IMG/VR virus record: IMGVR_UViG_3300035181_001974
DNA: 64,000 bases
From: a virus
Direction: 5' to 3' (one strand)
This document shows, piece after piece, positions 38,986-52,913 of the stretch. Under the pieces are notes generated by a model, which was given only the letters and a program-made list of their open reading frames with translations, made no database searches and was not told where the DNA came from. The translations under genes were made by a program, and so were the position numbers. Position 1 is the first letter of the stretch. Every line of letters starts with the position of its first letter.

Positions 38986-39167
38986 AGCGCCCCTTGACCG
39001 ACGCGGACATCGAGATCCTAACGGACAACGTCCGGGCACAGTCCTCGCGTCCTCTCTCAAAAGAGTTCCGCAAGGAGATTGCGTGCACAGTCGAGGAACT
39101 ATGGCGTGAGGTCAAGCGCCTGTGGCGCGCAGTGAATCTTCAACGCTGAACCTGGTAGGATAGTCTC

Positions 39168-39461
39168 ATGGTCAATCCAAGCCGCATTTCTCCCACGATC
39201 CGCGATATCCTGTTCACCCTCGTCCGCAACAAGACGGCAACGGTGAAAGATTTCGCAGTGATCCAACAGAAGCGACGAGCGCTCCAGAGCCCGACGTGGG
39301 GGCACTCCCTCGTCACCTCCGGACGAGACGGGTACGGCTGGCGAGCGTCCCTGGTGCACCGAGGCTTCATCGAGGTCGTCGGCAAGACGAAGTCAGGTGC
39401 TCACGTGTTTGCACTGACGGAGCCCGGACTGGAGCTGGCGATCTCGCTGGCGCTGCTGTGA
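39168..39461 (+). CDS. small winged-helix-like DNA-binding protein (putative)
   Basis: 97 aa; preceded by the TGAATCTTCAAC...GGTAGGATAGTCTC junction element. Confidence 0.4.
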   Translation: MVNPSRISPTIRDILFTLVRNKTATVKDFAVIQQKRRALQSPTWGHSLVTSGRDGYGWRASLVHRGFIEVVGKTKSGAHVFALTEPGLELAISLALL

Positions 39462-39493
39462 ACCTTCATCTCTGATCCTGGTAGGATAGACTC

Positions 39494-40189
39494 ATGAACG
39501 CCATGCAACAGCCCCTCATCATCGACCGCGCTCACAAGGCCATCGACCTCATCCTTGCCAGCGAGATCGCGCAGAAGTACCTGTCCCCGCACACCATGCA
39601 GTCGCTCCGCGAGCAGCGCAAGTCGGGCTCCGCGGGCAACGTGTCCGTGATGTTCCGCGATACCACGGAGCAGATCGACACGAGCTGTGACCTCTACGTG
39701 CGGTTCGATACGATCGACTGGACCCGCGACCTGAAGCCCCGTGAGGACGGGTCGATCTGGCGGAACTACAAGTTCCGCGTCGAGGTCAACTGGCCCAGCC
39801 ACGGAGACACGCGGCCCGCCCTCGCCAAGGCGCGCCTGGAGTTCTACACCAGGGTCGTCGAGCTCACGGAGGCGATCAACGCGGAAATCGGCGACGGGAT
39901 CGCGGTCTGCATCCGCACCGCGGAGGAGCAGGCGGCGTTCATGGCCGAGCAGGAACGCAAGGCCGAGGAAGCCCGCATCGAGCGTGTTCTCCACGAGGCC
40001 GCCGACATGGTCCGCAAGGGTATGCGCGTGGGTCAGGATCGCAACATCCCCTCCTCGCTGCTGCCGGGCATCAAGACGGGCGTCTACCCCGTCTCGCGGG
40101 ACGATTACAACGGCAAGGTCGAGCGCAAGTACACCATCACCGTCGACGAGCGGCGGCCGAACACCTCGCACCTCCACCGCGTCTCCTGA
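39494..40189 (+). CDS. hypothetical protein
   Basis: 231-aa ORF with the junction element upstream. Confidence 0.5.
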   Translation: MNAMQQPLIIDRAHKAIDLILASEIAQKYLSPHTMQSLREQRKSGSAGNVSVMFRDTTEQIDTSCDLYVRFDTIDWTRDLKPREDGSIWRNYKFRVEVNWPSHGDTRPALAKARLEFYTRVVELTEAINAEIGDGIAVCIRTAEEQAAFMAEQERKAEEARIERVLHEAADMVRKGMRVGQDRNIPSSLLPGIKTGVYPVSRDDYNGKVERKYTITVDERRPNTSHLHRVS

Positions 40190-40233
40190 GTGTAAAGCCG
40201 GGACTCGCTAAGTTAGGATAGAGACACCACCAC

Positions 40234-41394
40234 ATGGCAACTCCCAACTCCATGGCGATCCATACCCTTGTGGACGTCTCTCCCAAGCTCCCCGCCTTCA
40301 TCTCCGTCCTGCTGCGCGGTCCTCACGGGATCGGCAAGTCGCAGCTGGCTCGCCAGGTCGCCCGCATCATCGCTCACGCGGAGCAGATCAAGGACTTCGA
40401 GTTCATCGACCAGCGCCTGTCGCAGAAGACGGAAGGCGATCTCATCGGCCTCCCCAGCACCGACGGCGAGGTCACGCGCTTCAATCCGCCCGACTGGTAC
40501 AAGCGTGCCTGCGTCCGGCCCTGCTTCCTCCTGCTGGACGAGCTGAACCGCGCGACCCAGGAGGTCATGCAGGCAGCGTTCCAGATCGTGCTCGACCGTG
40601 AGCTCAACGGCTGGAAGCTGCACCCCCAGACCCGCGTCTGGTCGGCCATCAACTCCTCACAGGAGTACACGGTCAACGAGATGGATCCGGCGCTCCTCGA
40701 TCGCTTCTGGGTCGTCGACCTCAAGCCGGACGTCAAGGACTGGCTCGCCTGGGCAAAGGGCGAGGGTGACATTCACCCGACCCTGATCGACTTCCACGCT
40801 GCCAACGGCGAGAAGTGGCTCGACCCGCCCAAGGGCGCCGAGGCCGGCAGCGTTCATTCCTCGCGGCGTAGCTGGGAGCGTATGGACCGCTCGCACAAGC
40901 ACGCCGGGGTCGCGGATGATCCCAGCAACCCGCTGTTCTACCACATAGCCGTGGGCTTCGTCGGTGTCGAGGCGGCGATCGCCTTCCACGATTTCGCGGT
41001 CACCGTCGACACCCGCGTCTCGGGCAAAGACGTGATCGACGGGTACGACAAGGTCCAGCACAAGGTCAAGAAGTTCACGGCCGACCGCATCAACGATCTG
41101 GTCGATAAGGTCTCGGACCACGTGACCAAGAACCTCAACAGTCTGACCGAGAAGCAAGGCACCAACCTGAAGCAGTTTCTCAAGGACCTGCCGGGTGAGC
41201 AGCGCGTCAACTGCTGGTCCAAGCTGACCCTGCCTGGCACCGACAAAATGGAGCTGGCACGCAGCATCCACAAGTACTGCGCGGCCGCAGTCCTGGACGT
41301 CTTCGGCGTCCCGATGGGCGAGGCTGGCATCGGCATCGTTCCTGACATCCCCGGCATCTTCAAGTCGCCCGGGGCGGGAGGGAAGAAGAAGTGA
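40234..41394 (+). CDS. MoxR-like AAA+ ATPase (AAA_5 type)
   Basis: LLRGPHGIGKSQLARQVA Walker A; LLLDELNRATQEVMQAAFQIVLDREL Walker B / sensor region. Confidence 0.65.
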   Translation: MATPNSMAIHTLVDVSPKLPAFISVLLRGPHGIGKSQLARQVARIIAHAEQIKDFEFIDQRLSQKTEGDLIGLPSTDGEVTRFNPPDWYKRACVRPCFLLLDELNRATQEVMQAAFQIVLDRELNGWKLHPQTRVWSAINSSQEYTVNEMDPALLDRFWVVDLKPDVKDWLAWAKGEGDIHPTLIDFHAANGEKWLDPPKGAEAGSVHSSRRSWERMDRSHKHAGVADDPSNPLFYHIAVGFVGVEAAIAFHDFAVTVDTRVSGKDVIDGYDKVQHKVKKFTADRINDLVDKVSDHVTKNLNSLTEKQGTNLKQFLKDLPGEQRVNCWSKLTLPGTDKMELARSIHKYCAAAVLDVFGVPMGEAGIGIVPDIPGIFKSPGAGGKKK

Positions 41395-41407
41395 CCTAGT
41401 TACCTGC

Positions 41408-41995: not shown

Positions 41996-42290
41996 TGATG
42001 AGCGGCCTGCGCCCTCAGGTTGGATCCACGCCAAGACAGCGGCGGGCGCGCAGCGCCTGTTGGAGACGGGCCGCGTGGTGGAGCTAAGCCTCGACCACGA
42101 TCTGGGACCTCTGAGCGCAGGCACCGGCTACGATGTTGTCTGCTGGTTGGAAGAGCAGTGCGCCCGTCAGGACTTCATCCCGCCTGAGATCATCAGCGTT
42201 CATTCGGCCAATCCCGTCGGTGCACAACGGATGCACCAGGCGATAGAATCGATTCGACGAGTCTGGCAGCAGAAGGTCGGAGGCAGCTGA
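41955..42290 (+). CDS. CPR-like (cyclic-phosphate processing receiver) domain protein
   Basis: LWLDDERPAPSGW ... LSLDHDLG ... ISVHSANPVG is the pattern typical of this phage-common small domain. Confidence 0.45.
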   Translation: MTQQKQMTMRLWLDDERPAPSGWIHAKTAAGAQRLLETGRVVELSLDHDLGPLSAGTGYDVVCWLEEQCARQDFIPPEIISVHSANPVGAQRMHQAIESIRRVWQQKVGGS

Positions 42291-42697
42291 TGCGCAACAA
42301 CAAGCTCAACGACGCCACGCGAATCTTCATCCATACGGCAATGTTCCAAGAGGGCATCGTCCCGATGGAAGACCCGACGATGGACGTCCGCCGTGCGTTG
42401 AAAGGCCTGCAGCAGGAAGATGCCCGACGCTTGAAGCGGAAGTTTCGCAAGCTGTGGCGTAAGCAGATGAAGAAGCAGCTGGTGAAGCTGCCCGAGGAGC
42501 GAAAGAAGCTCGTCAAGAACAAATACGTTGCCGTCCCAAAGAAAGGCAAGCCGACGCGACCTTCACGGAGGCAGAGGCTGGCGCGCAAGCAGGCTGTCTA
42601 CGATGAAGTCATGAAGACCAAGGTTGAGCCGATGGTCAAGCAGCTCAAGACCATCAAGCGAGAGGAGGAGTCAAGCGATGGGAAGAAAGAGGGATAG
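42290..42697 (+). CDS. highly basic protein
   Basis: 135-aa Lys/Arg-rich ORF. Confidence 0.45.
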   Translation: MRNNKLNDATRIFIHTAMFQEGIVPMEDPTMDVRRALKGLQQEDARRLKRKFRKLWRKQMKKQLVKLPEERKKLVKNKYVAVPKKGKPTRPSRRQRLARKQAVYDEVMKTKVEPMVKQLKTIKREEESSDGKKEG

Positions 42698-42875
42698 TCC
42701 GTAGGGACTTCCCATCAACCAGCGTCGCTCGGGGGTCGGGTATGGCATGGTGCATGCCCTGAGCAAATATATTTTATAAGCAGGTGAAAGGGCGAACCGA
42801 CGTAGTCCCTGTAACCTAGGCCTCGAAAATGAGGTTCGCCCCCGGACTCCACAGAGTTTCGGGGGCGAAAGTCGT

Positions 42876-43162
42876 TTAAGCGCGGCGGAGCTTTTCGGGT
42901 GTGTCTATGTCGCCGAACCAGCAACGGACCCAGCGCGATTCTGAGTTGGGCAGTAGCAGGTAGCCCTGTGCCCAGTCGACCTCGCGGGGGCAGACGTTGA
43001 AGAGGTCCTCCCGTGTCTTGCTGTCAGCACCCCAGCGCCAGCAGCCGATGACCATCGCTAAGCGGTCGGGCTCGTCCTTCCGGGACGGGTGTTCGTTGTA
43101 GATGACGAGTTCGCCCAACGCTAGGCGGGCCAGCTGCCGTGGAGAACGCTTCTTCTCAGTCA
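42876..43162 (-). CDS. hypothetical protein
   Basis: Internal Met of ORF 42876..43313; ATGA-coupled to the upstream gene. Confidence 0.4.
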
Positions 43163-43611
43163 TCAATCGGCCTGACCCAGTTGAGATCTGTGATGATGTA
43201 GCGCCCGCCGCCGACGATGAAGGTGTGGCGGACCACGCGGAGCGTGCCCTGCTTGCCCTGCTCATCCACGCGGACGGAGTCAACGTAGAGAGCGATGGCC
43301 TTGGCGCGGGCAACGGTCGACTTGTTGGGATCGTAGGTCGGATCCCAGGTGCGAGGTATGTGGACCTGCAGCAGTGGAAAGGGCGGCTGCACCACGTTGG
43401 GACCGAGCTTGACCAGCTCGAGGTCCTTCATCACCTCCCACATCGCGCCCGGGACCATGTGGGCGGCGTATAGTTCTTGCTTCTCGAGTGGGACGTCTTC
43501 CTCGTGGGTATGACGCCGAATCTTGCCAACCGGCACCGCGAAGGTCTCTGCGTCCTTCTTCCAGTTGATCGGTCCCCTACCACGTGATGAGGGTCGCTTG
43601 CCCCAGGTCAT
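43156..43611 (-). CDS. hypothetical protein
   Basis: 151-aa ORF. Confidence 0.5.
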   Translation of the reverse strand: MTWGKRPSSRGRGPINWKKDAETFAVPVGKIRRHTHEEDVPLEKQELYAAHMVPGAMWEVMKDLELVKLGPNVVQPPFPLLQVHIPRTWDPTYDPNKSTVARAKAIALYVDSVRVDEQGKQGTLRVVRHTFIVGGGRYIITDLNWVRPIDD

Positions 43612-43639
43612 GGATTTATCCTACCACACCTGTCGGTGC

Positions 43640-43675
43640 CTTTGCAACGAGTTGCACACCCGCGAGCGAGGATCA
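43640..43675 (+). promoter_or_regulatory. operator copy 3: TGCAACGAGTTGCA followed by CACCCGCGAGCG
   Basis: Same palindrome plus extension. Confidence 0.5.
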
Positions 43676-43975
43676 GGCGATGATCTTGAGGCAGGTCGAC
43701 GGGCAGTAGAAGCGCTGCTTCGTCATATCCTCACGGACCCAGCAGTTGACCCGCATCACCTTCTCGATGACGCCGGTGCAGGGAAACCCGCCACGGGCCG
43801 TGAAGCTGACGCGCTGTCCGACGCGGAACTGGGCGATCGCGGTCTCCTTCGTCGCGGTACGCTGCCGTTTGATGTTGGCGTTCCAGGCCTTGGCCAGCTG
43901 CTGCGTCTCCGTGGGGGTGAGCTGGCACGTGGCGAGGTAGTTTAGCACATCAGCGAACTTGAGGTTGGTTGCCAT
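43673..43975 (-). CDS. hypothetical protein
   Basis: 100-aa ORF. Confidence 0.45.
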   Translation of the reverse strand: MATNLKFADVLNYLATCQLTPTETQQLAKAWNANIKRQRTATKETAIAQFRVGQRVSFTARGGFPCTGVIEKVMRVNCWVREDMTKQRFYCPSTCLKIIA

Positions 43976-44063
43976 GGTTCTAGTGTATCACGATCGCGGG
44001 ATAAAATGCACACGGGGCCCGAGCGATTGCCCGAGCCCCGTGTGCGCTAGTTGTGGTGTGAAC

Positions 44064-44432
44064 TCAGCGGGCGCCGAACGCCCGGAGCTCGCGGACGAGC
44101 TGGGCCTCGATCTCGGCCTGGGACATACCGAGATTGATCCCGTGGCGTTGGCAGAGGGAAGACAGGAGACTCCCGAGCTCGCGGGCACTGGACTCGATGG
44201 GCGTCAGCTCACGGTAGACGGGCTCGACGGCGAATTTCTGGTGATCTTCCTCGGGGAAGGCATCGAGGAAGGCCGCGAGGCGTCGGAAGGCATCGCCGCG
44301 CGAGATGGGCGTCGGCTCACGGGAGGTCTGGAAGTTGCCGGACCCAGAGAAGCTAGGGTTATGGTCGACGAAGACCTGGTCACGGGTGTTGACGACGCGG
44401 TAGCCGATGATTTCGTTGGTGGTGTTGGCCAT
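44064..44432 (-). CDS. hypothetical protein
   Basis: 122-aa ORF. Confidence 0.45.
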   Translation of the reverse strand: MANTTNEIIGYRVVNTRDQVFVDHNPSFSGSGNFQTSREPTPISRGDAFRRLAAFLDAFPEEDHQKFAVEPVYRELTPIESSARELGSLLSSLCQRHGINLGMSQAEIEAQLVRELRAFGAR

Positions 44433-44441
44433 GATTAGATC

Positions 44442-44666
44442 TTACTCCGTTTCGTGGTGGATTTGCACAGGGGGAGCGACGCGGTTGACGTGATCGTAAA
44501 AGCTCGGGCCACCGTGGCGCCGACTCGGGCGGCTGTTGACCCGCGAGCGCAGCCAGGCCCAGAACTCGCGGGTGCACGGCCCGCAGACGATGAAGGTCGC
44601 GGTGTAGGCGCACCCGGTCGCGGGATGGGCGACGCCGCCGCAGGTCCGGCACTGGATGGTTTCCAT
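44442..44666 (-). CDS. zinc-ribbon protein
   Basis: CRTCGG ... CGPC. Confidence 0.4.
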   Translation of the reverse strand: METIQCRTCGGVAHPATGCAYTATFIVCGPCTREFWAWLRSRVNSRPSRRHGGPSFYDHVNRVAPPVQIHHETE

Positions 44667-44958
44667 GGTTCTAGTCTACCACACATGGACGAAAGTTTGC
44701 ACTGTGAATCTTCAAGTCCCGGCGTGTTTAGGATCTAGACATGCCTAAGCCCAAGGTCCGCACCTAGACCGTTAAGGTCATCCAACGCCTCTCGCGGGGC
44801 GTTGAGGTCGAGGCTGCGACGGAGGAGGAAGCAACAGAGCTCGCCTCCTAGAAGGCGCGGTGCCTGTCGATCAACGTCTGGAACAAAGACGTTGACGATG
44901 AGGAGATCATCACCCGCGAGATGTGAACCTTTAGTGAGGATCGTGGTAGACTAGAACC

Positions 44959-45222
44959 ATGGAAACTTCCTGCGACATCCCGGTCATCCCTGGCTTCATC
45001 TTCATCTGGAAGGATAACGTTGGCATCACGGAGGCCTCCAGCATCGCCTGCATGAGCCCAGACTGGTGCGCCCCGATGAAGCTGACGGTTCAGAGCCACC
45101 GCACCGGGCGCACCAAGGACTTCCTCTACGAGAACACCGAGGTGAACGACGGCGAGATCGCTGCCTGGATCTACAAGTCGGCCGACGAGCAGGGCACCCG
45201 GCTTCACATCTTCAATGACTGA
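44959..45222 (+). CDS. hypothetical protein
   Basis: GGTAGACTAGAACC box before the ATG. Confidence 0.45.
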   Translation: METSCDIPVIPGFIFIWKDNVGITEASSIACMSPDWCAPMKLTVQSHRTGRTKDFLYENTEVNDGEIAAWIYKSADEQGTRLHIFND

Positions 45223-45301
45223 ACGCAGTGCAAGTTCCCCAGATCACGTGATAGGCTAATCAAGCCCCCTCCAACCTTACCACCACGGAAGAGAGCACAC
45301 C

Positions 45302-45541
45302 ATGAGCATGAAGACCTCCGACTCGCCGCGCCGCATCTACTCGACCATGGGTACCCTCGCCCTCTGCCACAAGGGCGTCCTCTACGGGTTCGTCGCGGAA
45401 AAGGATGGGGAGGCGAGCGCCTTCCGCAAGGACGTCCCGGCCACCGTCGAGAGCGTCAACGACGACGGCAGCATCACGGTCAAGCAGCGCAAGCCCCACG
45501 CGAAGGCGCTGGTCGAGACCTGGTTCGAGCTCGATGCCTGA
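45302..45541 (+). CDS. hypothetical protein
   Basis: SD GGAAGAGAG before the ATG. Confidence 0.45.
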   Translation: MSMKTSDSPRRIYSTMGTLALCHKGVLYGFVAEKDGEASAFRKDVPATVESVNDDGSITVKQRKPHAKALVETWFELDA

Positions 45542-45653
45542 AATCATCAACGAATCTTTGCGAACTTCGTGGGTGTAAAGCACCTGCGGTGTGACATAGA
45601 TTCAACCTACAAGCTGGCACCCACCAAAACCAAGGATTCACGGAGAGAACACC

Positions 45654-46301
45654 ATGAGTGACAAGTCGGACGAGAAGACCTCGAAGATCGATGCAGCGAT
45701 TGCGGCGGCCAAGGCCCGCGCAGCGGCCAAGGCCAAGGGCGAGACCGCGACGAAGACCGCGGAGACGAAGGCGGAGAAGCCCGCGAGGGCAGCTGCGAAG
45801 CCGAAGCTCACCGACGAAGAGCGCGAGGCCCGCAAGACGAAGCTCGAGGCGGAGCGCGCGGAGCGCAAGGCTGCGAAGACAGCGGCCCGCGAGAAGGCCC
45901 GCGCCGAGAAGCTGGCAGCCCGCAAGCCGGCGCACATGAGCAAGGTCACCAAGGCAGGCGAGAAGCTTCCGCAGCTCGCGGGTGCCGCGCAGATCCTCTT
46001 CGGTGATGCGACCGCGAACCTGGGCCGCGCCGACCTGGCGAGCCTGGCGCTGCACATCCAGCACTTCAACCGCGTCAAGGCGACGGAGCGAGCACTGGAC
46101 ACGAGGATCGAGGCCGGTCATACGGTCACCATCGTTGGCGGCGACCCGCGCTTCATCGGCAAGACGGGTACGGTCACCAAGGCGCAGCGCATCCGCTGCT
46201 ACGTCGAGATCGAGGGCGTCAACAAGCCGGTGTACTGCTTCACCTCGGACGTCGAGCCACTGGCTGCGGCCGATCGTGAGGCGACGGGCACGGACGCCTG
46301 A
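45654..46301 (+). CDS. histone H1-like Ala/Lys-rich protein with C-terminal KOW-like motif
   Basis: AAKARAAAKAKGETATKTAETKAEKPARAAAKPK low-complexity N-terminus; GHTVTIVGGDPRFIGKTGTV KOW-like; SD GGAGAG. Confidence 0.55.
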   Translation: MSDKSDEKTSKIDAAIAAAKARAAAKAKGETATKTAETKAEKPARAAAKPKLTDEEREARKTKLEAERAERKAAKTAAREKARAEKLAARKPAHMSKVTKAGEKLPQLAGAAQILFGDATANLGRADLASLALHIQHFNRVKATERALDTRIEAGHTVTIVGGDPRFIGKTGTVTKAQRIRCYVEIEGVNKPVYCFTSDVEPLAAADREATGTDA

Positions 46302-46329
46302 TTCGCAGAAGTTCACAAGGTAAACTCCA

Positions 46330-46520: not shown

Positions 46521-46648
46521 GTTAGAAGCGCATGGCCCGCCTCGAGCTGGTGCTGATGACGCTCGTGGATCACGTGGCGTGGCTGGTGGGCACCGTCCAA
46601 TGTCCGTTGCGAGTGCAAATTCACATCTGAACATGGTAGGATAATCTC

Positions 46649-46867
46649 ATGGTCAACCAAGGCACCCGTCGGATCCTCGAGAGCACGGCCTGGGACATCA
46701 CGATCGGCAGCGGCATGGCCGAGGAGTGGGCTGAACTGGGCCACGAGCCCGACCACGCAGTCCGCCGCACTGTCTCGGGCGTGCTGGGCCGTGATCCCAG
46801 CCACGAGGAGTGGGACTACTTCTGCCGAGAGTGGCGTGATTGCCTCCAGCGTGCCGCGCAGCTGTGA
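46649..46867 (+). CDS. hypothetical protein
   Basis: GGTAGGATAATCTC box before the ATG. Confidence 0.45.
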   Translation: MVNQGTRRILESTAWDITIGSGMAEEWAELGHEPDHAVRRTVSGVLGRDPSHEEWDYFCREWRDCLQRAAQL

Positions 46868-46973
46868 ACTTCAACAACGAAACAAGGTACAACAGAGACA
46901 TGGCCAAAACCCGCGAGCAGATCAAGCAGGCGATCCTCCACGAGGGGCCCTTCAAACGCAAAGAGAAGAAGTG

Positions 46974-47186: not shown

Positions 47187-47193
47187 CCCAAGC

Positions 47194-47228: not shown

Positions 47229-47277
47229 CTCTCACGGGGCTGTGTATTTCTCCCAGAAGATGAGGTAGACTAGACCC

Positions 47278-47643
47278 ATGATCCAACTCGGTTACATCTA
47301 CGCCAACATCGCAGGTGACTCGCGGTACACGGATCGCATGGAGGTCCAGCTCGACGCAGATACCCGCCTGGTTCACGTGATCGTCTCTTCCAGCTCGCCG
47401 GTTGGCGGCATGGACGGATCCGGCGACACCACGGGTTTCGAGGAGCGCCTCCACATGAAGGCAAAGTCCTCGTCCCCGAAGGACGTGCTGAAGCTCGTCA
47501 AGTCCATCATCGCGGACGAGCGGTGGAACTTCAAGCGTTACGGGCAGCCCACCAAGCGCTTCACCTGGCGCACGTTCCACGGTTTCAAGCAGGGCCTCAA
47601 CCAGACGCTGGTCCAGGAAGCGCTGATGTGCTCGGTCGACTGA
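47278..47643 (+). CDS. hypothetical protein
   Basis: GAGGTAGACTAGACCC box before the ATG. Confidence 0.45.
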   Translation: MIQLGYIYANIAGDSRYTDRMEVQLDADTRLVHVIVSSSSPVGGMDGSGDTTGFEERLHMKAKSSSPKDVLKLVKSIIADERWNFKRYGQPTKRFTWRTFHGFKQGLNQTLVQEALMCSVD

Positions 47644-47699
47644 GGGGAGAGAGAGGGGAAGAACACGAGCCAGAACAACGAACTCGATGCAATGATCGA

Positions 47700-47846
47700 T
47701 CACTGCCCAAGCGGGACCCCTGACCGGACCCACCAGTGACCCCCGTGAGTGCCTTCCCGGTCAGGACAGGGTTTCCTACCTACCGGGCCTGAGAGGGCCT
47801 CACGGGTGACGGTGCAAATCCTTGGTGAACTGAGGTAGGATTGTCT
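47700..47846 (+). repeat. intergenic repeat element copy D
   Basis: GTGACCCCCGTGAGTGCCTTCC, GGGCCTGAGAGGGCCTCACGGG, GGTGCAAATCC. Confidence 0.5.
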
Positions 47847-47847
47847 C

Positions 47848-48141
47848 ATGGCACGGATCAAGGCCCACCGAGAGTCTCTCCACACCACGATGGCATACGT
47901 CTTCTCGGACAACCCATTTGACGATCGCGTCTACCGGCTGGACAACCGTGGACGCTGCACCTGCGAGGGCGCTCAGCGCTTCGGGAAGTGCCGCCACACC
48001 TCGGAGATCGCCAAAGCCATCACCCAGTTCTTGGCCACCGCGAAGTGGAAGTGCACCGTTGACGTCATCTTCACGCCCTGGTCGGCCAAGGAGCTCGGGC
48101 TCACCAACGTGGAGGGTCTCACGATCCGCGCGACTCCGTGA
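47848..48141 (+). CDS. SWIM zinc-finger protein
   Basis: CTCEG...RFGKCRHT (C-x-C ... C-x-H). Confidence 0.5.
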   Translation: MARIKAHRESLHTTMAYVFSDNPFDDRVYRLDNRGRCTCEGAQRFGKCRHTSEIAKAITQFLATAKWKCTVDVIFTPWSAKELGLTNVEGLTIRATP

Positions 48142-48173
48142 ATCTTCAACATCGATCGGGATAGAATCAAATC

Positions 48174-48527
48174 ATGGCCCACCCCGCTCGCATCAAGCTC
48201 TCTAGCAAGGTTCGCTCTGAGATGACCGCGAAGGTCCGCGCGTCCCTGGACGCCAATCCTGCCGCGGTGGAGCGTGCCATCAAGGTCCTCTACGAGCGCC
48301 AGACCACTTCCGAGAAGGCGACCGAGAGCACTCACGTTAACAACCAAGTGGGCGTCCGTCACAGTCATGGGCATCGCATTGCCTACTACGGCAAGTGGCT
48401 GGCCCGCGGGAACCACCTCACCGGCATCCACCTGGAGCAGGCGCGGAAGCTGGCCCACACATATGCCCGAACCCAGCTCGCGGAGCTCGCGGCAGTCAAG
48501 GCGGGCCTGGTGCAAACTCCCGGTTGA
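48174..48527 (+). CDS. hypothetical protein
   Basis: Junction element upstream. Confidence 0.45.
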   Translation: MAHPARIKLSSKVRSEMTAKVRASLDANPAAVERAIKVLYERQTTSEKATESTHVNNQVGVRHSHGHRIAYYGKWLARGNHLTGIHLEQARKLAHTYARTQLAELAAVKAGLVQTPG

Positions 48528-48545
48528 TCGTGGTAGAGTAGACAC

Positions 48546-48722
48546 ATGGCCACCTGGAAGAAGATCGCCAACAAGCACTGGGAAGAAGCCGGCCGCTACA
48601 CCAGCAAGGACTGTGGCGGTGGACTCAGCAAGCCCGCGGCCCGCATCAAGCGCGCCATCAACCGCCGCGCCAAGCGTATCGAGGCCCGGGACGCCATGAA
48701 GGAGCAGCTCGATGCCGCCTGA
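48546..48722 (+). CDS. small basic protein (58 aa), below the ORF-track cutoff
   Basis: GGTAGAGTAGACAC box immediately before the ATG. Confidence 0.4.
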   Translation: MATWKKIANKHWEEAGRYTSKDCGGGLSKPAARIKRAINRRAKRIEARDAMKEQLDAA

Positions 48723-48950
48723 CATTCGCATCTTCCGCGTTCTCTTCCGCAAGCTCGGTGCGGTCGCAGTGAAGCCCAGCGCCATCAAGATCAAGGCCGC
48801 CACCGAAGGTGAGGCGATCAAGCGGGCCCGGCGTTGGCTGAGCCACGATATGCTGATGCTCGACGCAGAGATCCTCTCGAGCAAGGAGATGCTGGGCGCG
48901 GCTCGGTGGGCGCAGTGAACCTTCGCCTCTGAACAGGGTAGGATAGATTC

Positions 48951-49178
48951 ATGGCAATCACCGAACGAGACTTCAAGTGTGCGGTCGCGGCGGCGTGGGA
49001 AGGGCTCGCGAGTGACTGTGGCTCGCAGGACGGTGAGGGCGCGGTGGATCACCTCGAGAGCATTTTCTTCGCACTGGCGGAGGACCCTGACCTGGATCCT
49101 GAGACGCGCTCGCGGGTGGAGCGCTTCGAGCCCGAGCTGAAGCGGTGGGCTCTGGCAGAGCTGAAGAAGTACGGTTGA
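48951..49178 (+). CDS. hypothetical acidic protein
   Basis: GGGTAGGATAGATTC box before the ATG. Confidence 0.45.
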   Translation: MAITERDFKCAVAAAWEGLASDCGSQDGEGAVDHLESIFFALAEDPDLDPETRSRVERFEPELKRWALAELKKYG

Positions 49179-49333
49179 GAGACAGTGAACTCTCCACCAC
49201 GATTTGGATAGAGTAGACTCACTGGCTGGTCACGGTCTCCCAGCCGAATCAAAAAGAGACCACTTCAATTCGAGCAATTGGGATGCAACGCTCGTAAAAA
49301 ACTTTCCCTTCAACTCTCTCCCACATCGTCAAA

Positions 49334-49425
49334 AAGGCTCGCGGGTAGCGGCGCCCTCCAGGGTTGACGGTGAATCGACTAGGTTCGACTCCTGGGTGGG
49401 GGACCAGATCAGAGGCGCCAGTTTC
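49334..49425 (+). other. degenerate tRNA-like element with intact T-arm, acceptor 3' strand and encoded CCA
   Basis: CTAGG-TTCGACT-CCTGG then GTGGGGG-A-CCA; a 5' strand CTCCCAC can pair with the acceptor, but the D and anticodon arms do not fold canonically. Confidence 0.3.
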
Positions 49426-49483
49426 AAGACTGGTCCCGAGTGCTTAGGTGGTGTAGAACCATTCTACAATATCAAAGAATATT

Positions 49484-49714
49484 TTGATGCCCCGTGAGAA
49501 GTTCCTGATGCTGGTCTTCGCAGCCTTGATTGGGCTGACAGTGTTGCTCTTCTTGATGACGGCGCGGGCCGCAACGAGCAACTGCGAGTTCATCAAGGAT
49601 CCCGACGGGCGGAACTTCTGCCTGGCGACAACCAAGAAGGACCCGAGCTGGTGTGAGTTCATCAAGTCCGCGGACACCAGAAACCTCTGCCGTGCCACAG
49701 TGAAAAAGCCCTAG
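49484..49714 (+). CDS. secreted small Cys-repeat protein
   Basis: Signal peptide LMLVFAALIGLTVLLFLMTARA; internal repeat CEFIK-D/S-xDxRN-F/L-C-xAT-xKK x2. Confidence 0.5.
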   Translation: MMPREKFLMLVFAALIGLTVLLFLMTARAATSNCEFIKDPDGRNFCLATTKKDPSWCEFIKSADTRNLCRATVKKP

Positions 49715-49735
49715 CTCTGAGCATAGGATTAACCC

Positions 49736-49990
49736 ATGATGAGCAAGCCCAAGAAGCCCGCCTTGTCGAAACAGGAGTTCAACACCGCGATCACGCAGCT
49801 GTTGGCGTCGCATAGCGTCATGGCCGACCAGCTTACGGCTGCCGCGCAGGACGATCGCTATGCCCAGATGCTGAACGCCCTCCGCGAGCACGATCCCTTC
49901 CTGGCCGACCTGATCCTGGACGCGGATACCGGCATGGTCGACGGGTACCAGCGAATCGTCCGCTACTTGAGCTCCCGCGTCGATAACTGA
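49736..49990 (+). CDS. hypothetical protein
   Basis: 84-aa ORF. Confidence 0.4.
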   Translation: MMSKPKKPALSKQEFNTAITQLLASHSVMADQLTAAAQDDRYAQMLNALREHDPFLADLILDADTGMVDGYQRIVRYLSSRVDN

Positions 49991-50068
49991 GATGAACCTT
50001 GTTCCACAGTTCAACCGGGTGACTCAGTCCCGGTGAATCTTCAACTGCGATCGGGGTAGAGTAGAGAC

Positions 50069-50311
50069 ATGAGGATCTACGAACGTGTCAGCAACAAGAT
50101 CCGCCGCGACAGTGGCTTCAAGGCCAACGGTGGTGTCTTCCTCCCGCAGTCCCGCATGCGGCACATCCGCTGGGAAGAGGCGGTGAAGCACTCGCAGAAC
50201 AACCGCAGCAAGGGCACGCGGCACTACATCAAGGGCATGCAGTTCGTCCATTGGGACTGTACCTGTGGAGACATCGAGTGCCTCGCCAACCCGCGCCCGT
50301 CTGGGCGTTGA
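50069..50311 (+). CDS. hypothetical protein
   Basis: GGGGTAGAGTAGAGAC box before the ATG. Confidence 0.45.
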   Translation: MRIYERVSNKIRRDSGFKANGGVFLPQSRMRHIRWEEAVKHSQNNRSKGTRHYIKGMQFVHWDCTCGDIECLANPRPSGR

Positions 50312-51056
50312 TGTGTGAGGTAGCGCGCGACACAGGAAGCTCGATATCATGCGAGTCGCCGGAGGGATGCGACTTTATGATGGAAAGCAGGGACGTGCTC
50401 AGGACCGCCGCCTCGCGGGCCCTTCATCGCGGAAGAACCAGACTGCCCGGTTCACGGGCACGTAGCACAGGCTCAAGACCGCGAGCAGGAGAAAGTCCTT
50501 GGAATCCCGGGTCACAGAGCTGGAATCTCAGTTTGCGATTGCACTGCAGCGGATCACGGACTTGGAGAGAGAGAGCTGCCCGAGCCTCGACTGTGACCTG
50601 AGGCGGACATAGGATCATCAGCGGAACCCCGACATGTTGTGATGAATCCTCTGTGAACTCCCTCTGACTTGAGTGGTACAGTAAGATCATGTTCAACAAA
50701 GGTCGCACTCCCTTCCTGGGCAACGTCGATTGGCGCGAGGTCACGATCTTTTTCATCGTGATGAATCTGCTCATCGTGAGCAGCAGCGTCTTCATCTTCT
50801 TCATGATGAAGTGAACCCGTCTGACCCTCAAGACAGGACAAGCTCGTGAAGACTTTCGAATACAATGTCATGCGTCTGAGTCCTCTCGAGTTGCCTCATG
50901 GCAAGCTCGAGATCTTCCTGAAAGAAAAGGGTGACCAGGGTTGGGACCTGGTCACGGTCATCGTGCTTGGGTCCACGTGGTGGTACCACTTCAAGCGTGA
51001 ATCGCACGTTGCTGAGTGAACACTAACCCTGCGACATGATAGGATAGAGTAAAGCC

Positions 51057-51311
51057 ATGAAGAACAGGACCCTCAACATCGTCATCTCCGGACCCTGCGC
51101 CTCGGGCAAGACCTCCTTCGCTCGGGCCCTACAGATCCTGTGCAACGAGTACAACATCCCCTTCACGCTCAACGACGATGACATCGACGTCAACCGCGAG
51201 TTCGACACCGACGAGGAGAGCGACCGCCTCAAGCGCGTCTTCACTGCCTTGGGCGAGAGCGGGAAGGTCACCGTCAACATCAAGACGGTGCAGACGCACC
51301 ACGAGCCTTAG
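51057..51311 (+). CDS. small P-loop-like protein
   Basis: IVISGPCASGKTS; GATAGGATAGAG box upstream. Confidence 0.4.
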   Translation: MKNRTLNIVISGPCASGKTSFARALQILCNEYNIPFTLNDDDIDVNREFDTDEESDRLKRVFTALGESGKVTVNIKTVQTHHEP

Positions 51312-51952
51312 AGCCAGAGCGCCCGCAGTGGCAGCATTGCGGGCTGAGAGCCACGGTTGCTCAGTCGATGACTTCTTCAAGGCCCAATGACGGACGATAG
51401 TAAGCGATTGCTTGCAGCGGGAGCCTGCGTTCTGATCATCTATGCCTTTCTTGTCTTGAACGAGAAGCCGCAGACGAAGCTCGGCTCGCTGGTCAAGCAC
51501 ATGGTAAAGACGGGACAATGGAACGCAGACTGACTGTGAATCTCCACGGGCGGCGTGAGACATGATCTAAACACGGTCAAGAAGCCCGCTGTTAAGAAGA
51601 CTGCCTCCATCGTGGCGCGGACTCTAAGAACGTCCGGGTGACCCTTACGGTCAATGTGTGCTTGGTCCACGGTCCACAACGTCAGCTGGGCAGAGACAGA
51701 GATAGAGACAGAGATCCGTATCTGGAGATACGCCGCGAGGCAATGAGAAGGTGCGACGATCATGGAAGTCGCCACTTCAGGCACCGCGGCGGGACGATCG
51801 ACGTCTATGCTTCTTTCCCGGGTTCGCCTCCCGTGACGGGTCCGAACTCCGACTGCGAGGCTGCCTCACGGGAGGTGTCGGCTTCACGGTCCTCTGGAGA
51901 ATTGTCGCGGAAATCTGTGCAATGTGCGGGGCGATCGTGGTAGACTAGACTC

Positions 51953-52600
51953 ATGCCGATCATCGAGACCTACGCCAATCCGAACACCGGCAACGTCGAG
52001 CGGTCTGAGATTACCCACCTCGGGCGTGTTGTCAAGGTTCGCAGCTACGTGGCCATCCGGAACTTCTCGGACACGCTCGACTACACGGACTTCCGCAGCT
52101 GCACCGTCACGGAGGCGCTGGTCTGGCTCGGGCGGGAGCAAACAACGATATCCGGGCTGCCCGAGTCCGAGACCAATCCTGTGGTGCAGCTCGCTCCCGC
52201 CGACCGGTTCGCCTGGGTCGACTGCACCAACATCTTCACCTGGCGTGGCTTGCCCCACCGCGAGCCCTCGGTCGACTACATCGCGCTGGCGATCCCGGAA
52301 CTGTTCCAGGACCTGGAGGCATGGACCGCGATCCAGGAACAGAACGCCAAGGAAGCCGCTGAGAAGCAGGCGAAGCGGGAAGCAGAAGAGCAGGCCCGCA
52401 GGCTGAAGGAAGCCCGTGACCGCCCCGAGGTGGGCAAGCAGATGCGGGTCAAGAGCGGCAGCAAGGTGAAGCCCGGGACGCTGGGCACCATCGCCTACAT
52501 CCACCACAGCGGCCGCGTGCTGCTGAAGCCGGACGCCAGCTGGCGGGACCGCAATGCCCAGGGCGACTGGATCGACCCGCGGCACCTGGAGGCTCGGTGA
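51953..52600 (+). CDS. hypothetical protein
   Basis: GTGGTAGACTAGACTC box before the ATG; its stop lies inside the conserved TGAATCTTCAAC junction. Confidence 0.5.
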   Translation: MPIIETYANPNTGNVERSEITHLGRVVKVRSYVAIRNFSDTLDYTDFRSCTVTEALVWLGREQTTISGLPESETNPVVQLAPADRFAWVDCTNIFTWRGLPHREPSVDYIALAIPELFQDLEAWTAIQEQNAKEAAEKQAKREAEEQARRLKEARDRPEVGKQMRVKSGSKVKPGTLGTIAYIHHSGRVLLKPDASWRDRNAQGDWIDPRHLEAR

Positions 52601-52631
52601 ATCTTCAACAGCGAACCGGATATAACTGGAT

Positions 52632-52913
52632 CATGAGCAAGAACACCAAGCCGGTCACGTACAAGGTCAAGGGCTACTACGAGTGCCTCTGCTGCCCGTG
52701 CTGCGGCCACGAGGAGGACTGCTGCCGCGATGAGGAAGTCTTCCTGACGGAGGGCCACGCCACGGAGGCCGAGGCTAAGTCGGCGGCCAAGGCGTTCCAC
52801 TCCACGCGGCGCCGAGGGGCCGACGTGGTCACGTACGACCTGGTCCGCGTTGGTCCGCTGGGCGGCGAGCGGCTGGTCTCCTCTGTCCGCTACAACGTGG
52901 AGAACTGGTGACG
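52632..52913 (+). CDS. Cys-cluster small protein (CLCCPCCGHEEDCC)
   Basis: 93-aa ORF; shares a 32-bp near-identical segment with the truncated copy at 53364..53546. Confidence 0.45.

Follow-up and report, generated by a model that had tools for sequence, protein, structure and literature searches.

Many genes in the window, the 64,000-nt viral DNA stretch analysed here (IMG/VR record IMGVR_UViG_3300035181_001974), are directly preceded by a conserved cassette of about 40 bases, which is probably a compact promoter of the sigma-70-family type; transcription would begin at the A of the ATG and yield a leaderless mRNA. Direct observation covers the motif itself, the rigidity of its geometry and its enrichment, together with its conservation in the clade and the finding that in relatives it is separable from the ATG. 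If the promoter reading is right, this uncultured huge phage would make dozens of its small genes each as a separate leaderless mRNA.

Organization and enrichment of the cassette

The cassette consists of a -35-like box GTG(C/A/T)A(N) at positions -36 to -31, an 18-nt spacer, a G at -14, a -10 hexamer TAnnnT at -12 to -7 and exactly 6 nt before the ATG, whose A is at the predicted +1; this 6-nt discriminator ends in C at -1. The G-rich middle of the hexamer varies (TAGACT, TAGAAT, TACACT, TATTAT, TATAAC), with T-12, A-11 and T-7 conserved. The first-pass annotation had recognized a conserved junction before many ATGs, which stands far beyond chance, but several details of its width and build were off: the GGTAG(G/A)(A/C)TAGA box attributed to at least 14 + strand genes occurs exactly only five times on the + strand of the region, with 12 + strand sites at up to two mismatches from GGTAGGATAGA, and its invariant part reduces to G(-14)nTAnnnT.

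GGTAGRMTAGA has six exact matches versus 0.02 expected, and TGAAYCTTCAAC with up to one mismatch has six versus 0.59 expected. A scan with a position weight matrix (PWM) derived from cassette instances gave 34 sites, and the ATG-independent core GTG[ACT]AN-N15-nGn-TAnnn[TC] was found 35 times on both strands versus 1.8 in shuffles. In 24 of these 35 cores an ATG lies exactly at the predicted +1 (expectation below 1), and 26 sites of the set with 17-19-nt spacers have an ATG exactly 6 nt past the hexamer. Among spacer lengths, enrichment is confined to 18 nt (42 sites versus about 11.8 expected), the others being at background. Conservation at positions left free by the search (G-36 0.96, G-14 0.93, T-7 0.93, C-1 0.93) matches the places where sigma-70 holoenzymes contact DNA or start.

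An upstream TTCAAC element and the exclusion of a sigma-70-like promoter had also been put forward. The conserved upstream element is instead GTG(C/A/T)A(N), CTTCAAC being a spacer feature of one sub-family of cassettes, and the exclusion was wrong because the 11 nt were measured from TTCAAC, inside the spacer, to TAGGAT; GTGAAT or GTGCAA is separated from TAnnnT by 18 nt, there is a G at -14, and the ATG follows the hexamer after 6 nt, a layout that is classic for sigma-70. The partial conservation of the spacer (CTTCAAC, GAAC) exceeds the needs of a simple promoter and could reflect an additional binding factor or merely the recent common descent of the copies.

Cassettes extend from 1.1 to 62.5 kb on both strands; many are on the + strand, as first described, but the - strand has them too, and four successive - strand genes (43156-44666) bear one. 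Of the outlying members proposed earlier, 7213 does not belong and 5982, with GCGCAA, is only a weak variant that precedes an ORF of 25 codons. The sites are given below, with numbers between motifs in nt.

Sites of the 38.9-55.2 kb block
38944..38982, +, cassette GTGCAA-18-TAAACT-6-ATG; ATG 38980 opens 5 codons, real ORF 38994-39149 in another frame
39132..39170, +, cassette GTGAAT-18-TAGGAT-6-ATG; predicted leaderless gene 39168-39461, upstream ORF stop TGA 39147 in spacer
39458..39496, +, cassette GTGAAC-18-TAGGAT-6-ATG; gene 39494-40189, -35 box TGA is the stop of 39168-39461
40190..40236, +, core GTGTAA-18-TAGGAT; predicted 8-nt leader to ATG 40234, AAA_5/MoxR-like ATPase
42220..42256, +, possible internal promoter GTGCAC-18-TAGAAT; ~34-nt leader, GGAGG Shine-Dalgarno (SD), gene 42290-42697
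43609..43647, -, cassette TTGCAA-18-TAGGAT-6-ATG; gene 43611-43156
43973..44011, -, cassette GTGCAT-18-TACACT-6-ATG; gene 43975-43673, 17-bp hairpin (44045-44008) overlaps -35 box
44430..44468, -, cassette GTGCAA-18-TAAGAT-6-ATG; gene 44432-44064
44664..44702, -, cassette GTGCAA-18-TAGACT-6-ATG; gene 44666-44442, divergent from 44704 cassette
44704..44743, +, 19-nt-spacer cassette GTGAAT..TAGGAT-6-ATG; ORF from 44741 with two in-frame TAG codons
44923..44961, +, cassette GTGAAC-18-TAGACT-6-ATG; gene 44959-45222
45228..45264, +, core GTGCAA-18-TAGGCT; ~38-nt leader with SD, gene 45302-45541
45573..45609, +, core GTGTAA-18-TAGATT, no G at -14; ~45-nt leader with SD, gene 45654-46301
46613..46651, +, cassette GTGCAA-18-TAGGAT-6-ATG; gene 46649-46867
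46864..46902, +, cassette GTGAAC-18-TACAAC-6-ATG; box TGA is the stop of 46649-46867, downstream ORF of 24 codons
47242..47280, +, cassette GTGTAT-18-TAGACT-6-ATG; gene 47278-47643
47812..47850, +, cassette GTGCAA-18-TAGGAT-6-ATG; gene 47848-48141
48138..48176, +, cassette GTGAAT-18-TAGAAT-6-ATG; gene 48174-48527, TGA is the stop of 47848-48141
48510..48548, +, cassette GTGCAA-18-TAGAGT-6-ATG; gene 48546-48722
48915..48953, +, cassette GTGAAC-18-TAGGAT-6-ATG; gene 48951-49178, TGA is the stop of 48712-48918
49185..49221, +, core GTGAAC-18-TAGAGT; ATG at +1 absent
49700..49738, +, cassette GTGAAA-18-TAGGAT-6-ATG; gene 49736-49990
50033..50071, +, cassette GTGAAT-18-TAGAGT-6-ATG; gene 50069-50311
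50653..50691, +, cassette GTGAAC-18-TACAGT-6-ATG; gene 50689-50814
51016..51059, +, core GTGAAC-18-TAGGAT; predicted 5-nt leader to ATG 51057, TGA is the stop of 50846-51019
51917..51955, +, cassette GTGCAA-18-TAGACT-6-ATG; gene 51953-52600
52597..52635, +, cassette GTGAAT-18-TATAAC-6-ATG; gene 52633-52911, TGA is the stop of 51953-52600
53841..53879, +, cassette GTGAAA-18-TACACA-6-ATG; gene 53877-54218
55105..55143, +, cassette GTGAAT-18-TATTAT-6-ATG; gene 55141-55635

Sites in the rest of the window
1105..1143, +, cassette GTGAAC-18-TAGACT-6-ATG; gene 1141-1503
2099..2137, +, variant cassette GTGCAA-18-TACTCA-6-ATG; ORF 2135-2368
6069..6105, +, 17-nt-spacer variant GTGAAA..TAGAGT, ATG 5 nt past hexamer; 5'-3' exonuclease gene 6103-6939
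15394..15432, +, cassette GTGTAC-18-TAGAAT-6-ATG; fills the 37-nt gap between a Cpn10-like gene and Cpn60/GroEL 15430-17037
26749..26786, -, core GTGCAA-18-TACCAT, ATG 5 nt past hexamer; gene 26751-26263
30624..30662, -, cassette GTGCAT-18-TACGAT-6-ATG; gene 30626-29907
34513..34551, -, cassette GTGAAT-18-TAAGAT-6-ATG; 26-codon ORF
36698..36736, -, cassette GTGCAA-18-TAGAAT-6-ATG; gene 36700-36035
38521..38557, -, core GTGAAA-18-TAGACT; ~24-nt leader to ATG 38497, KaiC/RecA-like ATPase 38497-37733
38793..38831, -, cassette GTGTAA-18-TACTAT-6-ATG; 5-codon ORF follows
62523..62562, +, variant GTGTAA-18-TAGAGT, ATG 7 nt past hexamer; gene 62560-62940

Start codons and upstream stops

The start codon is ATG in all 24 sites, and the SD that had been read in the box as AGGA/GAG does not hold: an SD core (GGAG/GAGG/AGGA at -16 to -4) is absent in 17 of the 24, the conserved residues being T-12, A-11 and T-7. 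GGAGG-type SDs are present at genes lacking the motif, an either/or pattern of -10 hexamer and SD that Shell et al. (2015) name as the mark of leaderless genes. In 31 of the 35 sites the 42 nt ahead of +1 contain an in-frame stop; the TAG at -12 shares the frame of the ATG, which makes an upstream extension impossible. Residue 13 of Cpn60 aligns with GroEL residue 4, with no other in-frame start, and independent gene calls on a Logan contig use three of these starts, 39168 and 39494 (leaderless) and 40234 (leadered). Judging from these sequence features, the cassette ATG is the real gene start.

The claim that the TGA of GTGAAY is the stop codon of the upstream gene is confirmed at 39458, 46865, 48139, 48916 and 52598, and is also true at 51017, but fails at 39128, where the upstream ORF ends on a second TGA (39147), and at 49176, where the TGA is a genuine stop 9 nt ahead of the box. 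The remaining upstream genes have a stop TGA at -21, or TAG/TAA at -12 or -7. The view that one cassette joins the stop of a gene, the spacer and the start of the next gene is borne out, the cassette being compact and phage-specific in sequence; upstream stops are located from -45 to -7 in any frame, or outside the cassette, so there is no fixed stop-start relation.

A proposed promoter model for leaderless mRNAs

In the proposed mechanism an RNA polymerase holoenzyme would recognize the -35-like box, the 18-bp spacer, the G at -14 as a partial extended -10, and the -10 hexamer, and would initiate at the A of the ATG, generating an mRNA with neither 5' UTR nor SD whose 5'-terminal AUG would be recognized by the ribosome; the host is assumed to be proficient in leaderless translation. 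Nearly every gene of the small-gene block (38.9-55.2 kb), on both strands, would be its own transcription unit, and because the genes are tightly packed an upstream gene would read into the next promoter and end on a stop triplet that this happens to hold (a TGA of GTGAAY or of the spacer, or a TAG/TAA within the -10 or behind it). Among the three functions originally offered, a phage-specific promoter is the one that finds support; an RNA processing site and a translational reinitiation element do not. No excess of terminators was found at the junctions; as a counterpoint to the model, terminator-free read-through mRNAs would contain internal genes without an SD.

About 20 contigs of related uncultured huge phages have the same core. 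Its density in related contigs is 2-14 per 10 kb, and relatives have it 20-45 nt upstream of genes with their own SD. AAA_5 orthologues in about 20 contigs keep the promoter core and have an SD leader; the leader of this gene varies in length between 8 nt and, where an SD is present, about 35 nt. In the closest relatives L001 and L002 a 5' hairpin, starting a few nt past the predicted +1, and then an SD come after the core, which suggests that what is conserved is the promoter, leaderlessness being lineage-dependent. Orthologues of gene 51953, in which the MPI N-terminus is kept, have a leaderless cassette in the window and in L013 and a hairpin and SD leader in L002.

Recognition of the -35 box

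From sequence we infer promoter function, a start at the A of the ATG and the identity of the sigma that would read the cassette. The -35 box matches TTGACA at only three of six positions, and a scan for E. coli-consensus promoters did not pick up the cassettes, so recognition by a housekeeping sigma is not assured; some hexamers ending in C or A (TACAAC, TATAAC, TACACA) are also poor for E. coli sigma-70. It is possible, if rather doubtful, that these are promoters at which a phage-specific factor, and not the host housekeeping sigma, recognizes the GTG(C/A)AA box; they would then form a class of phage promoters of middle or late type, with analogues in T4 sigma appropriation or in split sigmas. 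The candidate reader would be the clade's sigma-70-family protein, devoid of the region-4.2 recognition helix, with a putative partner or activator. This RpoD-like protein of the relatives contains only Pfam regions 2 and 3, aligns to about residue 577 of the 613 of E. coli RpoD and ends just ahead of RERIRQIEAKALRKL; all 7 of 7 loci show this, as do most of those checked among L028-L074. Its best 120 database matches are all of 237-301 aa, none with Sigma70_r4. The gene occurs on contigs of the closest relatives, about 30 kb past the AAA_5 gene, and cores number 76 per 286 kb in truncated-sigma loci versus 6 per 181 kb in other-sigma loci. Moreover, the box persists in contigs of 36 to 62% GC despite its dissimilarity to TTGACA, and the more distant L022 and L025 use a canonical TTGACT-N17-TATAAT instead.

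However, the sigma gene was found neither in the 64-kb window nor elsewhere for its genome, a -35 box cannot be read by a sigma alone if the 4.2 recognition helix is missing, and a search for a partner or a separate 4.2-like ORF found none. The co-occurrence of motif and sigma may reflect only shared ancestry, and the sigma gene is translationally coupled to its upstream gene, without its own promoter. Early-type genes normally rely on the host holoenzyme, and the cassettes are the only abundant promoter-like sites, located before small early-looking genes.

Other functions considered

An operator function, with an asymmetric intergenic site bound by a repressor or regulator of the phage that would block or modulate transcription as at the stoperators of mycobacteriophage L5, is unlikely. 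The motif is indeed asymmetric, oriented with transcription and placed in short gaps between genes, where it overlaps stops and starts, with a spacer conserved beyond the requirement of a plain promoter, and a separate palindrome TGCAA-N3/4-TTGCA followed by CACCCGCGAGC adjoins three - strand promoters, which indicates that regulator sites probably exist. In contrast, its bipartite conservation, with an exact 18-nt gap, a degenerate middle and invariant T-12, A-11 and T-7, points to a polymerase footprint and not to a 13-bp contiguous operator; the same core lies at a fixed 6 nt from the ATG in the window but at 20-45 nt in relatives, and the window proteins that were scanned included neither a repressor nor an integrase.

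Less probable still is a translation element on a polycistronic mRNA, either a ribosome-binding or start-associated sequence of unusual conservation, comparable to the SAS/ESAS of Cluster K mycobacteriophages, or a termination-reinitiation signal by which the upstream stop would be coupled with the following ATG. Its position directly upstream of ATG as sole start codon, the AGGA of TAGGAT, suitably spaced in 7 of 24 sites, and the upstream stops within the cassette would suit this function, and SAS is likewise tightly linked to ATG starts and to the genome half with the non-structural genes. SAS is, however, a contiguous 13-bp box containing AGGAG at a variable 3-7 bp, whereas the window cassette is bipartite and 6 nt from the ATG. 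The missing SD cores, the G positions that vary where T, A and T do not, the scattered upstream stops, the cassettes at divergent and first-in-block genes (44664-44743) and the relatives with a separate SD all argue against it.

Cleavage of long primary transcripts by a nuclease into monocistronic RNAs starting at or near the AUG is very improbable, since, although terminators between genes are absent and the junctions have, if anything, less structure than their shuffled counterparts (z -1.2 to +1.9), as would suit a single-strand-specific nuclease, neither a conserved RNA structure nor an Rfam family was found at them, no known cleavage site has a bipartite -35/-10 layout and fixed 18-nt spacing, the divergent junction offers no upstream transcript to cleave, and in relatives conservation stops at the predicted +1 while the transcribed part varies.

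Occurrence and Anatomy of the Repeated Junction

The junction reported between successive genes in the first-pass annotation is real and far over-represented in the window: GGTAGRMTAGA has six exact matches against 0.02 expected, and TGAAYCTTCAAC, at no more than one mismatch, has six against 0.59. It is not limited, however, to the + strand or to 39-52.6 kb; a position weight matrix seeded on the instances converged on 34 sites distributed on both strands from 1.1 to 55.1 kb, and the literal boxes by which the repeat was recognized, although over-represented, are only the best-conserved sub-family of this set. The sites share a cassette of about 40 bases that includes the downstream gene's start codon and is composed as follows.

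Parts of the cassette (A of ATG = +1)
-36..-31: -35-like box
18 bp, between the -35-like box and the -10 hexamer: spacer
G-14: half of an extended -10
-12..-7: -10 hexamer
6 nt, ending at C-1, before A+1: discriminator

The spacing was examined by pairing any TAnnnT with any [G/T]TG[ACT][AT]N hexamer at every gap from 14 to 21 nt; the 18-nt spacer alone is enriched (42 sites vs about 11.8 in shuffles), spacers of 14-17 and 19-21 nt being at background, and in 26 sites with a 17-19-nt spacer ATG follows TAnnnT at exactly 6 nt. In the logo, built on 27 sites with several of the strongly conserved positions left free in the search, the frequencies are 0.96 for G-36, 0.93 for G-14, 0.74 for G-13 and 0.93 for both T-7 and C-1; TAnnnT is present in all sites, and T-7 reaches its value although T or C was permitted. 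The middle of the -10 hexamer is variable (TAGGAT, TAGACT, TAGAAT, TAGAGT, TACACT, TAAGAT, TATTAT, TATAAC), and a check for an extended -10 (TGn) gave T-15 at only 0.44 beside G-14. The -35 consensus, GTG(C/A/T)A(A/T/C), agrees with TTGACA at three of six positions. A scan with the E. coli consensus detected one site in 15 kb, not above shuffles, and none of the cassettes, which are therefore not canonical TTGACA/TATAAT promoters.

The distance of 11 nt between TTCAAC and TAGGAT had been taken as proof that the element is not sigma-70-like. This argument falls, since TTCAAC belongs to the spacer and the hexamer that is conserved, GTGAAT/GTGCAA, lies just upstream of it. The layout of the cassette thus has the geometry of a putative sigma-70-family promoter, with its predicted start on the first base of the start codon.

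Predicted Leaders and Start Codons

The core, that is, the -35/-10 pattern GTG[ACT]AN-N15-nGn-TAnnn[TC] searched independently of ATG, occurs 35 times in the window vs 1.8 in shuffles. ATG lies exactly at +1 in 24 of these cores and within 1 nt in three more; 28 sites, about one per 0.6 kb, are concentrated in 38.9-55.2 kb, where 23 have ATG at +1. From the fixed 6-nt gap between hexamer and ATG in the 24 sites, transcription is predicted to start on the A of ATG, a condition here called leaderless; C is found at -1 in 22 of the 24, and C-1/A+1 is a pyrimidine-purine start context. Other genes have a predicted leader.

Predicted leader lengths
AAA_5 ATPase gene: 8 nt
gene starting at 51057: 5 nt
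genes starting at 45302 and 45654: about 40 nt, with a Shine-Dalgarno (SD) sequence
gene starting at 38497, - strand: about 24 nt

In leaderless genes a -10 hexamer takes the place of the SD before the start, the two being mutually exclusive (Shell et al. 2015, PMC4633059). The cassettes had instead been described as boxes containing an SD, a description that does not hold: GGAG, GAGG or AGGA is found within -16..-4 in seven of the 24 leaderless-type sites and the other 17 are devoid of an SD core, the conserved positions being T, A and T and not AGGAG. GGAGG-like SDs precede motif-free genes, for instance those at 15111, 13275, 17034, 42290 and 30710 (- strand). The start codon is ATG in all 24 sites, consistent with the restriction of leaderless genes to ATG or GTG.

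Statements on genes rest on the cassette ATGs, the ORF listing and the gene calls of the Logan contig. In 31 of the 35 sites an in-frame stop, usually the TAG of the -10 hexamer, lies no more than 42 nt upstream of +1, so that the reading frames cannot begin earlier. The independent Logan gene calls share three starts, the leaderless 39168 and 39494 and the leadered 40234. A further case is offered by the chaperonin genes.

15111-17037, + strand: Cpn10-like/Cpn60 pair

The 37-nt gap between the two genes is GTGTAC-18-TAGAAT-6-ATG, a predicted leaderless-type promoter belonging to Cpn60 (15430); residue 13 of this protein aligns with residue 4 of solved GroELs, leaving about 9 extra N-terminal residues with respect to GroEL, and no alternative in-frame start codon is available. 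Together with the first codons of the gene at 51953, ATG CCG ATC (MPI), which are identical in its orthologues from two related loci, L013 and L002, these data support the cassette ATG as the genuine N-terminus. The 359-aa ORF 47973-49052 (- strand) was discarded as a gene-caller shadow over four cassette-led + strand genes.

Upstream Stops and Alternative Signals

The stop codon of the upstream gene had been considered part of one conserved stop-and-start unit, possibly serving translational reinitiation. Upstream genes do end inside several cassettes: the stop is the TGA of the -35 GTGAAY at 39458, 46865, 48139, 48916, 51017 and 52598, whereas in other cassettes it is a TGA in the spacer (-21) or a TAG/TAA at -12 or -7, and 14 of the 35 cassettes (about 40%) contain stops in all three frames. 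The offset from stop to start is not fixed, which argues against a dedicated signal coupling the two. In a tightly packed region the upstream ORF would read into the next promoter and terminate at whichever stop triplet this contains.

As regards an RNA processing site or another RNA element, eight junctions proved no more structured than their shuffled counterparts (z from -1.2 to +1.9) and have no inverted repeat, and Rfam 15 has no family at the gathering score in 36-56 kb; RNA readings were rejected because the junctions have neither structure nor Rfam match. Terminators are also not in excess in the window (12 terminator-like sites vs 10.3 expected).

The Core in Related Phages

Related loci and contigs of uncultured phages, here L001-L074 and none closer than about 63% protein identity, were used for comparison. 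The density of the same core is 2-14 per 10 kb in L001-L021 vs about 0-1 in shuffles, and the position of the start codon is variable. ATG is at +1 in most copies of L005-L008, L012 and L013 (14/20, 17/22 and 13/21); in L001 and L002, the closest to the window by AAA_5 identity, just two of the 26-27 cores have it there. In these two contigs a conserved hairpin, GGTGGGGA-N5-CCCCACC, stands a few nt after the predicted +1 A and precedes a GGAG-type SD and then ATG, and the -35 GTGCAAA lies in the loop of a GC-rich hairpin ccggggGTGCAAAcccccgg (e.g. L002:3166-9100). Each transcript of L001/L002 is predicted to open with a conserved 5' hairpin and an SD, and the arrangement appears to be a terminator/promoter/stabiliser module similar to the promoter-early stem-loop (PeSL) cassettes of T4-type phages.

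Orthologous genes show the same change of leader. The promoter of the AAA_5 gene is kept in nearly all contigs, with a leader ranging from the 8 nt of the window to about 35 nt with an SD, and the gene at 51953 has a leaderless cassette in the window and in L013, and a hairpin and SD leader in L002. On these comparisons, what is conserved and separable is the pair of -35 and -10 elements, whereas having this pair fused with the start codon is a lineage-specific state. Separability from ATG is what a promoter predicts, and not a ribosome-binding site, a reinitiation element or a cleavage site; among the functions originally offered, promoter is supported, while reinitiation and RNA processing are not.

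The distant L022 and L025 (42% GC) have instead repeated canonical TTGACT-N17-TATAAT promoters with SD leaders; these repeats, of the form CTTGACTT-N-TATTAT/TATAAT, stand behind A/T tracts, unlike the GTGCAA class. A different repetition occurs in another distant relative, L023, in which about 17 consecutive small ORFs (15200-20939) each open with (A/G)TGAA(A/G)GTCGGTGA(T/C)(T/C)T(G/A)GT and form a tandem family of paralogous small genes.

Comparison with Known Systems

The mechanism proposed for the cassette would match that of the leaderless-gene promoters of Actinobacteria and Deinococcus and of lambda PRM-cI. In the bacterial promoters, likewise, a TAnnnT -10 hexamer replaces the SD directly before the start codon, +1 coincides with a start codon that is ATG (or GTG) only, and SD-led genes coexist with leaderless ones. 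Mycobacterial promoters are mostly devoid of a conserved -35. The sites of the window differ in having a conserved non-canonical -35 (GTGCAA/GTGAAY) at a rigid 18-nt spacer and in being phage-borne, near-identical copies of one cassette. Leaderless-gene promoters have been studied in M. tuberculosis and M. smegmatis (Shell et al. 2015, PMC4633059; Cortes et al. 2013), and for lambda cI, from PRM, and P2 gene V an mRNA starting at AUG is among the examples cited in PMC4633059. In both phage genes the promoter is positioned so that the mRNA begins at AUG, as predicted in the window, but these are single regulatory genes, whereas in the window the arrangement is the predicted default for more than 20 genes in 16 kb. 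Of the jumbo phages examined by dRNA-seq or 5'-end mapping, phiKZ makes no leaderless transcripts, and the UTRs of AR9 measure 26-491 nt.

The genomic pattern, with many copies of a phage-specific promoter between small ORFs, has its counterpart in the early promoters of T4 and in PeSL cassettes (Arbiol et al. 2010, PMC2839356; Comeau et al. 2014, PMC4122927). Both have many copies of one promoter between small ORFs of unknown function in a plastic region, and in the window the 28 sites of 38.9-55.2 kb precede ORFs that mostly have no Pfam match. PeSLs moreover fuse terminator and promoter functions in one short intergenic module whose repeats could be recombination points, and L001/L002 have a GC hairpin around the -35 and a 5' hairpin. 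In contrast, T4 transcripts are leadered and SD-dependent and PeSLs hold a stem-loop, whereas in the window the terminator count and the fold z-scores reveal neither stem-loop nor terminator excess, and ATG belongs to the cassette.

T4 middle promoters (MotA box and sigma appropriation by AsiA) and late transcription by gp55/gp33 share with the cassette a normal -10 joined to an upstream box peculiar to the phage. The MotA box has its centre at -30, whereas with its 18-nt spacer the box of the window falls at the canonical -35 position; homologues of MotA and AsiA were not identified, and the truncated sigma described below was found in relatives only.

Stoperators are repressor sites of 13 contiguous bp, placed independently of any -35/-10 geometry and at no set distance from the start codon. 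Those of L5 and Cluster A phages resemble the cassettes in being multiple asymmetric sites oriented with transcription in short intergenic gaps. An operator of this type does not account for a motif in two parts whose spacings are exactly 18 and 6 nt; stoperators are likewise contrasted in PMC3203893.

The start-associated sequences (SAS and ESAS) found in mycobacteriophages of Cluster K and Microbacterium phages of Cluster EF (PMC3203893, PMC7302621) are also asymmetric conserved boxes a few nt before ATG, all oriented alike and confined to the non-structural part, sometimes overlapping the upstream stop and of unproven function. SAS is a contiguous 13-mer, GGGATAGGAGCCC, lying at a distance from the start that varies from 3 to 7 bp, and has an AGGAG complementary to the 3' end of 16S rRNA; ESAS is a 17-bp inverted repeat located upstream (PMC3203893, PMC7302621). 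The window conserves instead T-A-n3-T at a fixed 6 nt and a second box exactly 18 nt upstream, with no conserved AGGAG and no inverted repeats at its junctions; identity with SAS/ESAS was rejected on this difference between contiguous 13-mers at variable distance and a bipartite fixed motif.

Three departures distinguish the cassette from the known systems: the start codon inside it, the non-canonical -35 and the huge-phage carrier. In the literature, no description was found of leaderless promoters in jumbo or huge phages, nor of truncated sigmas in huge phages.

A Truncated Sigma Factor and the Reader of the -35 Box

Phage sigma-like proteins without a functional -35 reader exist. In eight of the related loci a sigma gene was identified by local phmmer with E. 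coli RpoD as query; the protein has Pfam regions 2 and 3 and no region 4, aligns with RpoD to about residue 577 of 613 and in every case ends ...YPITEEE..SGKGLT, at the precise point from which the recognition helix of region 4.2 (RERIRQIEAKALRKL) would start. The same truncated C-terminus is found in most of 24 checked loci among L028-L074, and the best 120 database matches of this sigma are all 237-301 aa long, without an r4 domain, on contigs of up to 370 kb. The family, whose members measure about 260-300 aa, is represented in L003, L004, L010, L012, L017, L019, L020 and L028-L074 and is absent from the window.

Examples of the truncated RpoD-like sigma
L012:6626-7519
L039:2953-3768

Neither a Pfam scan of the 30 largest ORFs nor phmmer searches of all ORFs with RpoD and RpoE detected a sigma in the window. 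On the L001/L002 contigs the gene lies about 30 kb beyond AAA_5, so that by synteny it would sit just outside the window; the sigma of this phage was not recovered, look-ups of close homologues having led to other samples. Core promoters number 76 per 286 kb in loci with the truncated sigma vs 6 per 181 kb in loci with other sigmas, that is, about 8 times denser. A search for a separately encoded 4.2-like helix returned only noise (an out-of-frame 51-aa segment, 7335-7487, E 0.047).

It is a tentative proposal that the -35 box is read by phage machinery rather than by the host sigma. A broader reading, possible though rather doubtful, is that a large clade of uncultured huge phages has a private promoter class, GTGCAA-N18-(G)nTAnnnT, in which the -35, instead of being recognized by the host housekeeping sigma, would be read by phage machinery built around the conserved RpoD-like sigma that has lost the region-4.2 helix; this machinery might consist of a sigma that is split or has a partner, or might represent sigma appropriation of a new form; some lineages, including the phage of the window, would have moved this promoter onto the start codon, making nearly every accessory gene a leaderless single-gene unit.

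Implications

If the prediction is true, this is a lineage of tailed phages in which an entire region of the genome is organized by default as leaderless single-gene units; until now leaderless transcription has been associated with isolated phage genes, as lambda cI, and with certain host phyla, and is absent in phiKZ and AR9. For gene calling, the cassette rather than the SD can fix starts in huge-phage metagenome contigs, and for host range its architecture predicts a host that translates leaderless mRNAs efficiently. From the engineering point of view, the cassette is a self-contained unit of 39 nt carrying the next start and, in about 40% of copies, upstream stops in all three frames. Finally, a widespread phage sigma family without the -35-reading helix co-occurs with a non-canonical -35, and the identity of the reader is a directly testable question.

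Genome Context and Other Features of the Window

The window encodes, besides the Cpn10/Cpn60 pair, several AAA ATPases, a KaiC/RecA-like ATPase, a 5'-3' exonuclease, a NUDIX protein, an ADP-ribosylglycohydrolase, a nucleoside deoxyribosyltransferase, a GH25 lysin, a papain-like peptidase, glycosyltransferases, three tRNAs and a protein related to the major vault protein (MVP).

30710-33289, - strand: MVP-like 859-aa protein with major-vault-protein shoulder and repeat domains and an SPFH/Band-7 domain

The sole phage matches of the MVP-like protein are in the uncultured 462-735-kb phages LR756500/1/3, and the AAA_5 ATPase has 25 IMG/VR loci at 39-63% identity, on contigs of up to 340 kb, vs at most 34% identity to cultured phages, among them those of Vibrio and Bacillus; the window therefore belongs to an uncultured genome of the huge-phage type. 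A megablast of 39-53 kb revealed no DNA-level relatives among GenBank phages, the exact junction pattern has no match in IMG/VR, and the 781-aa protein has none in a protein search for cultured relatives. As for the host, the GH25 lysin has a single 32% Flavobacterium match against one genome per species, which is uninformative, and Cpn60 shows much the same similarity to many phyla. To propose an actinobacterial host is no more than a guess, drawn from the coexistence of leaderless and SD-led genes, the TAGRRT-like -10 hexamers and the 18-bp spacer.

A second motif, CACCCGCGAGC, has 15 matches in the window vs 2.8 expected, among them the following three on the + strand, which extend to TGCAA-N3/4-TTGCA-CAC(C/T)CGCGAGCG.

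36880-36915: about 150 nt from the nearest - strand promoter
38553-38590: overlapping or abutting a - strand promoter
43634-43670: overlapping or abutting a - strand promoter
12 further copies

The extended motif is a candidate operator. Two cassette-led reading frames are irregular. The ORF 44741-44935 (+ strand), from the leaderless ATG 44741, has two in-frame TAG, yet of the three frames it clearly scores best for coding, and its end is the TGA in the -35 box of the cassette that follows. Either it is a pseudogene or amber read-through occurs; TAG is the normal stop of eight confident ORFs. In 38980-39149 (+ strand) the cassette ATG 38980 opens only five codons (MASAP-stop), and a plausible 51-aa ORF begins in another frame from 38994, as would be expected if a run of CCCC had a 1-nt indel, due to an assembly error or a real frameshift. 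The tRNA genes are also preceded by a predicted promoter of this class.

63436-63979, + strand: tRNA cluster, Ile-GAT and two Tyr-GTA

The promoter upstream of the cluster is a variant with a 17-nt spacer, GTGTAC..TAGAGT, located about 14 nt before tRNA-Ile.
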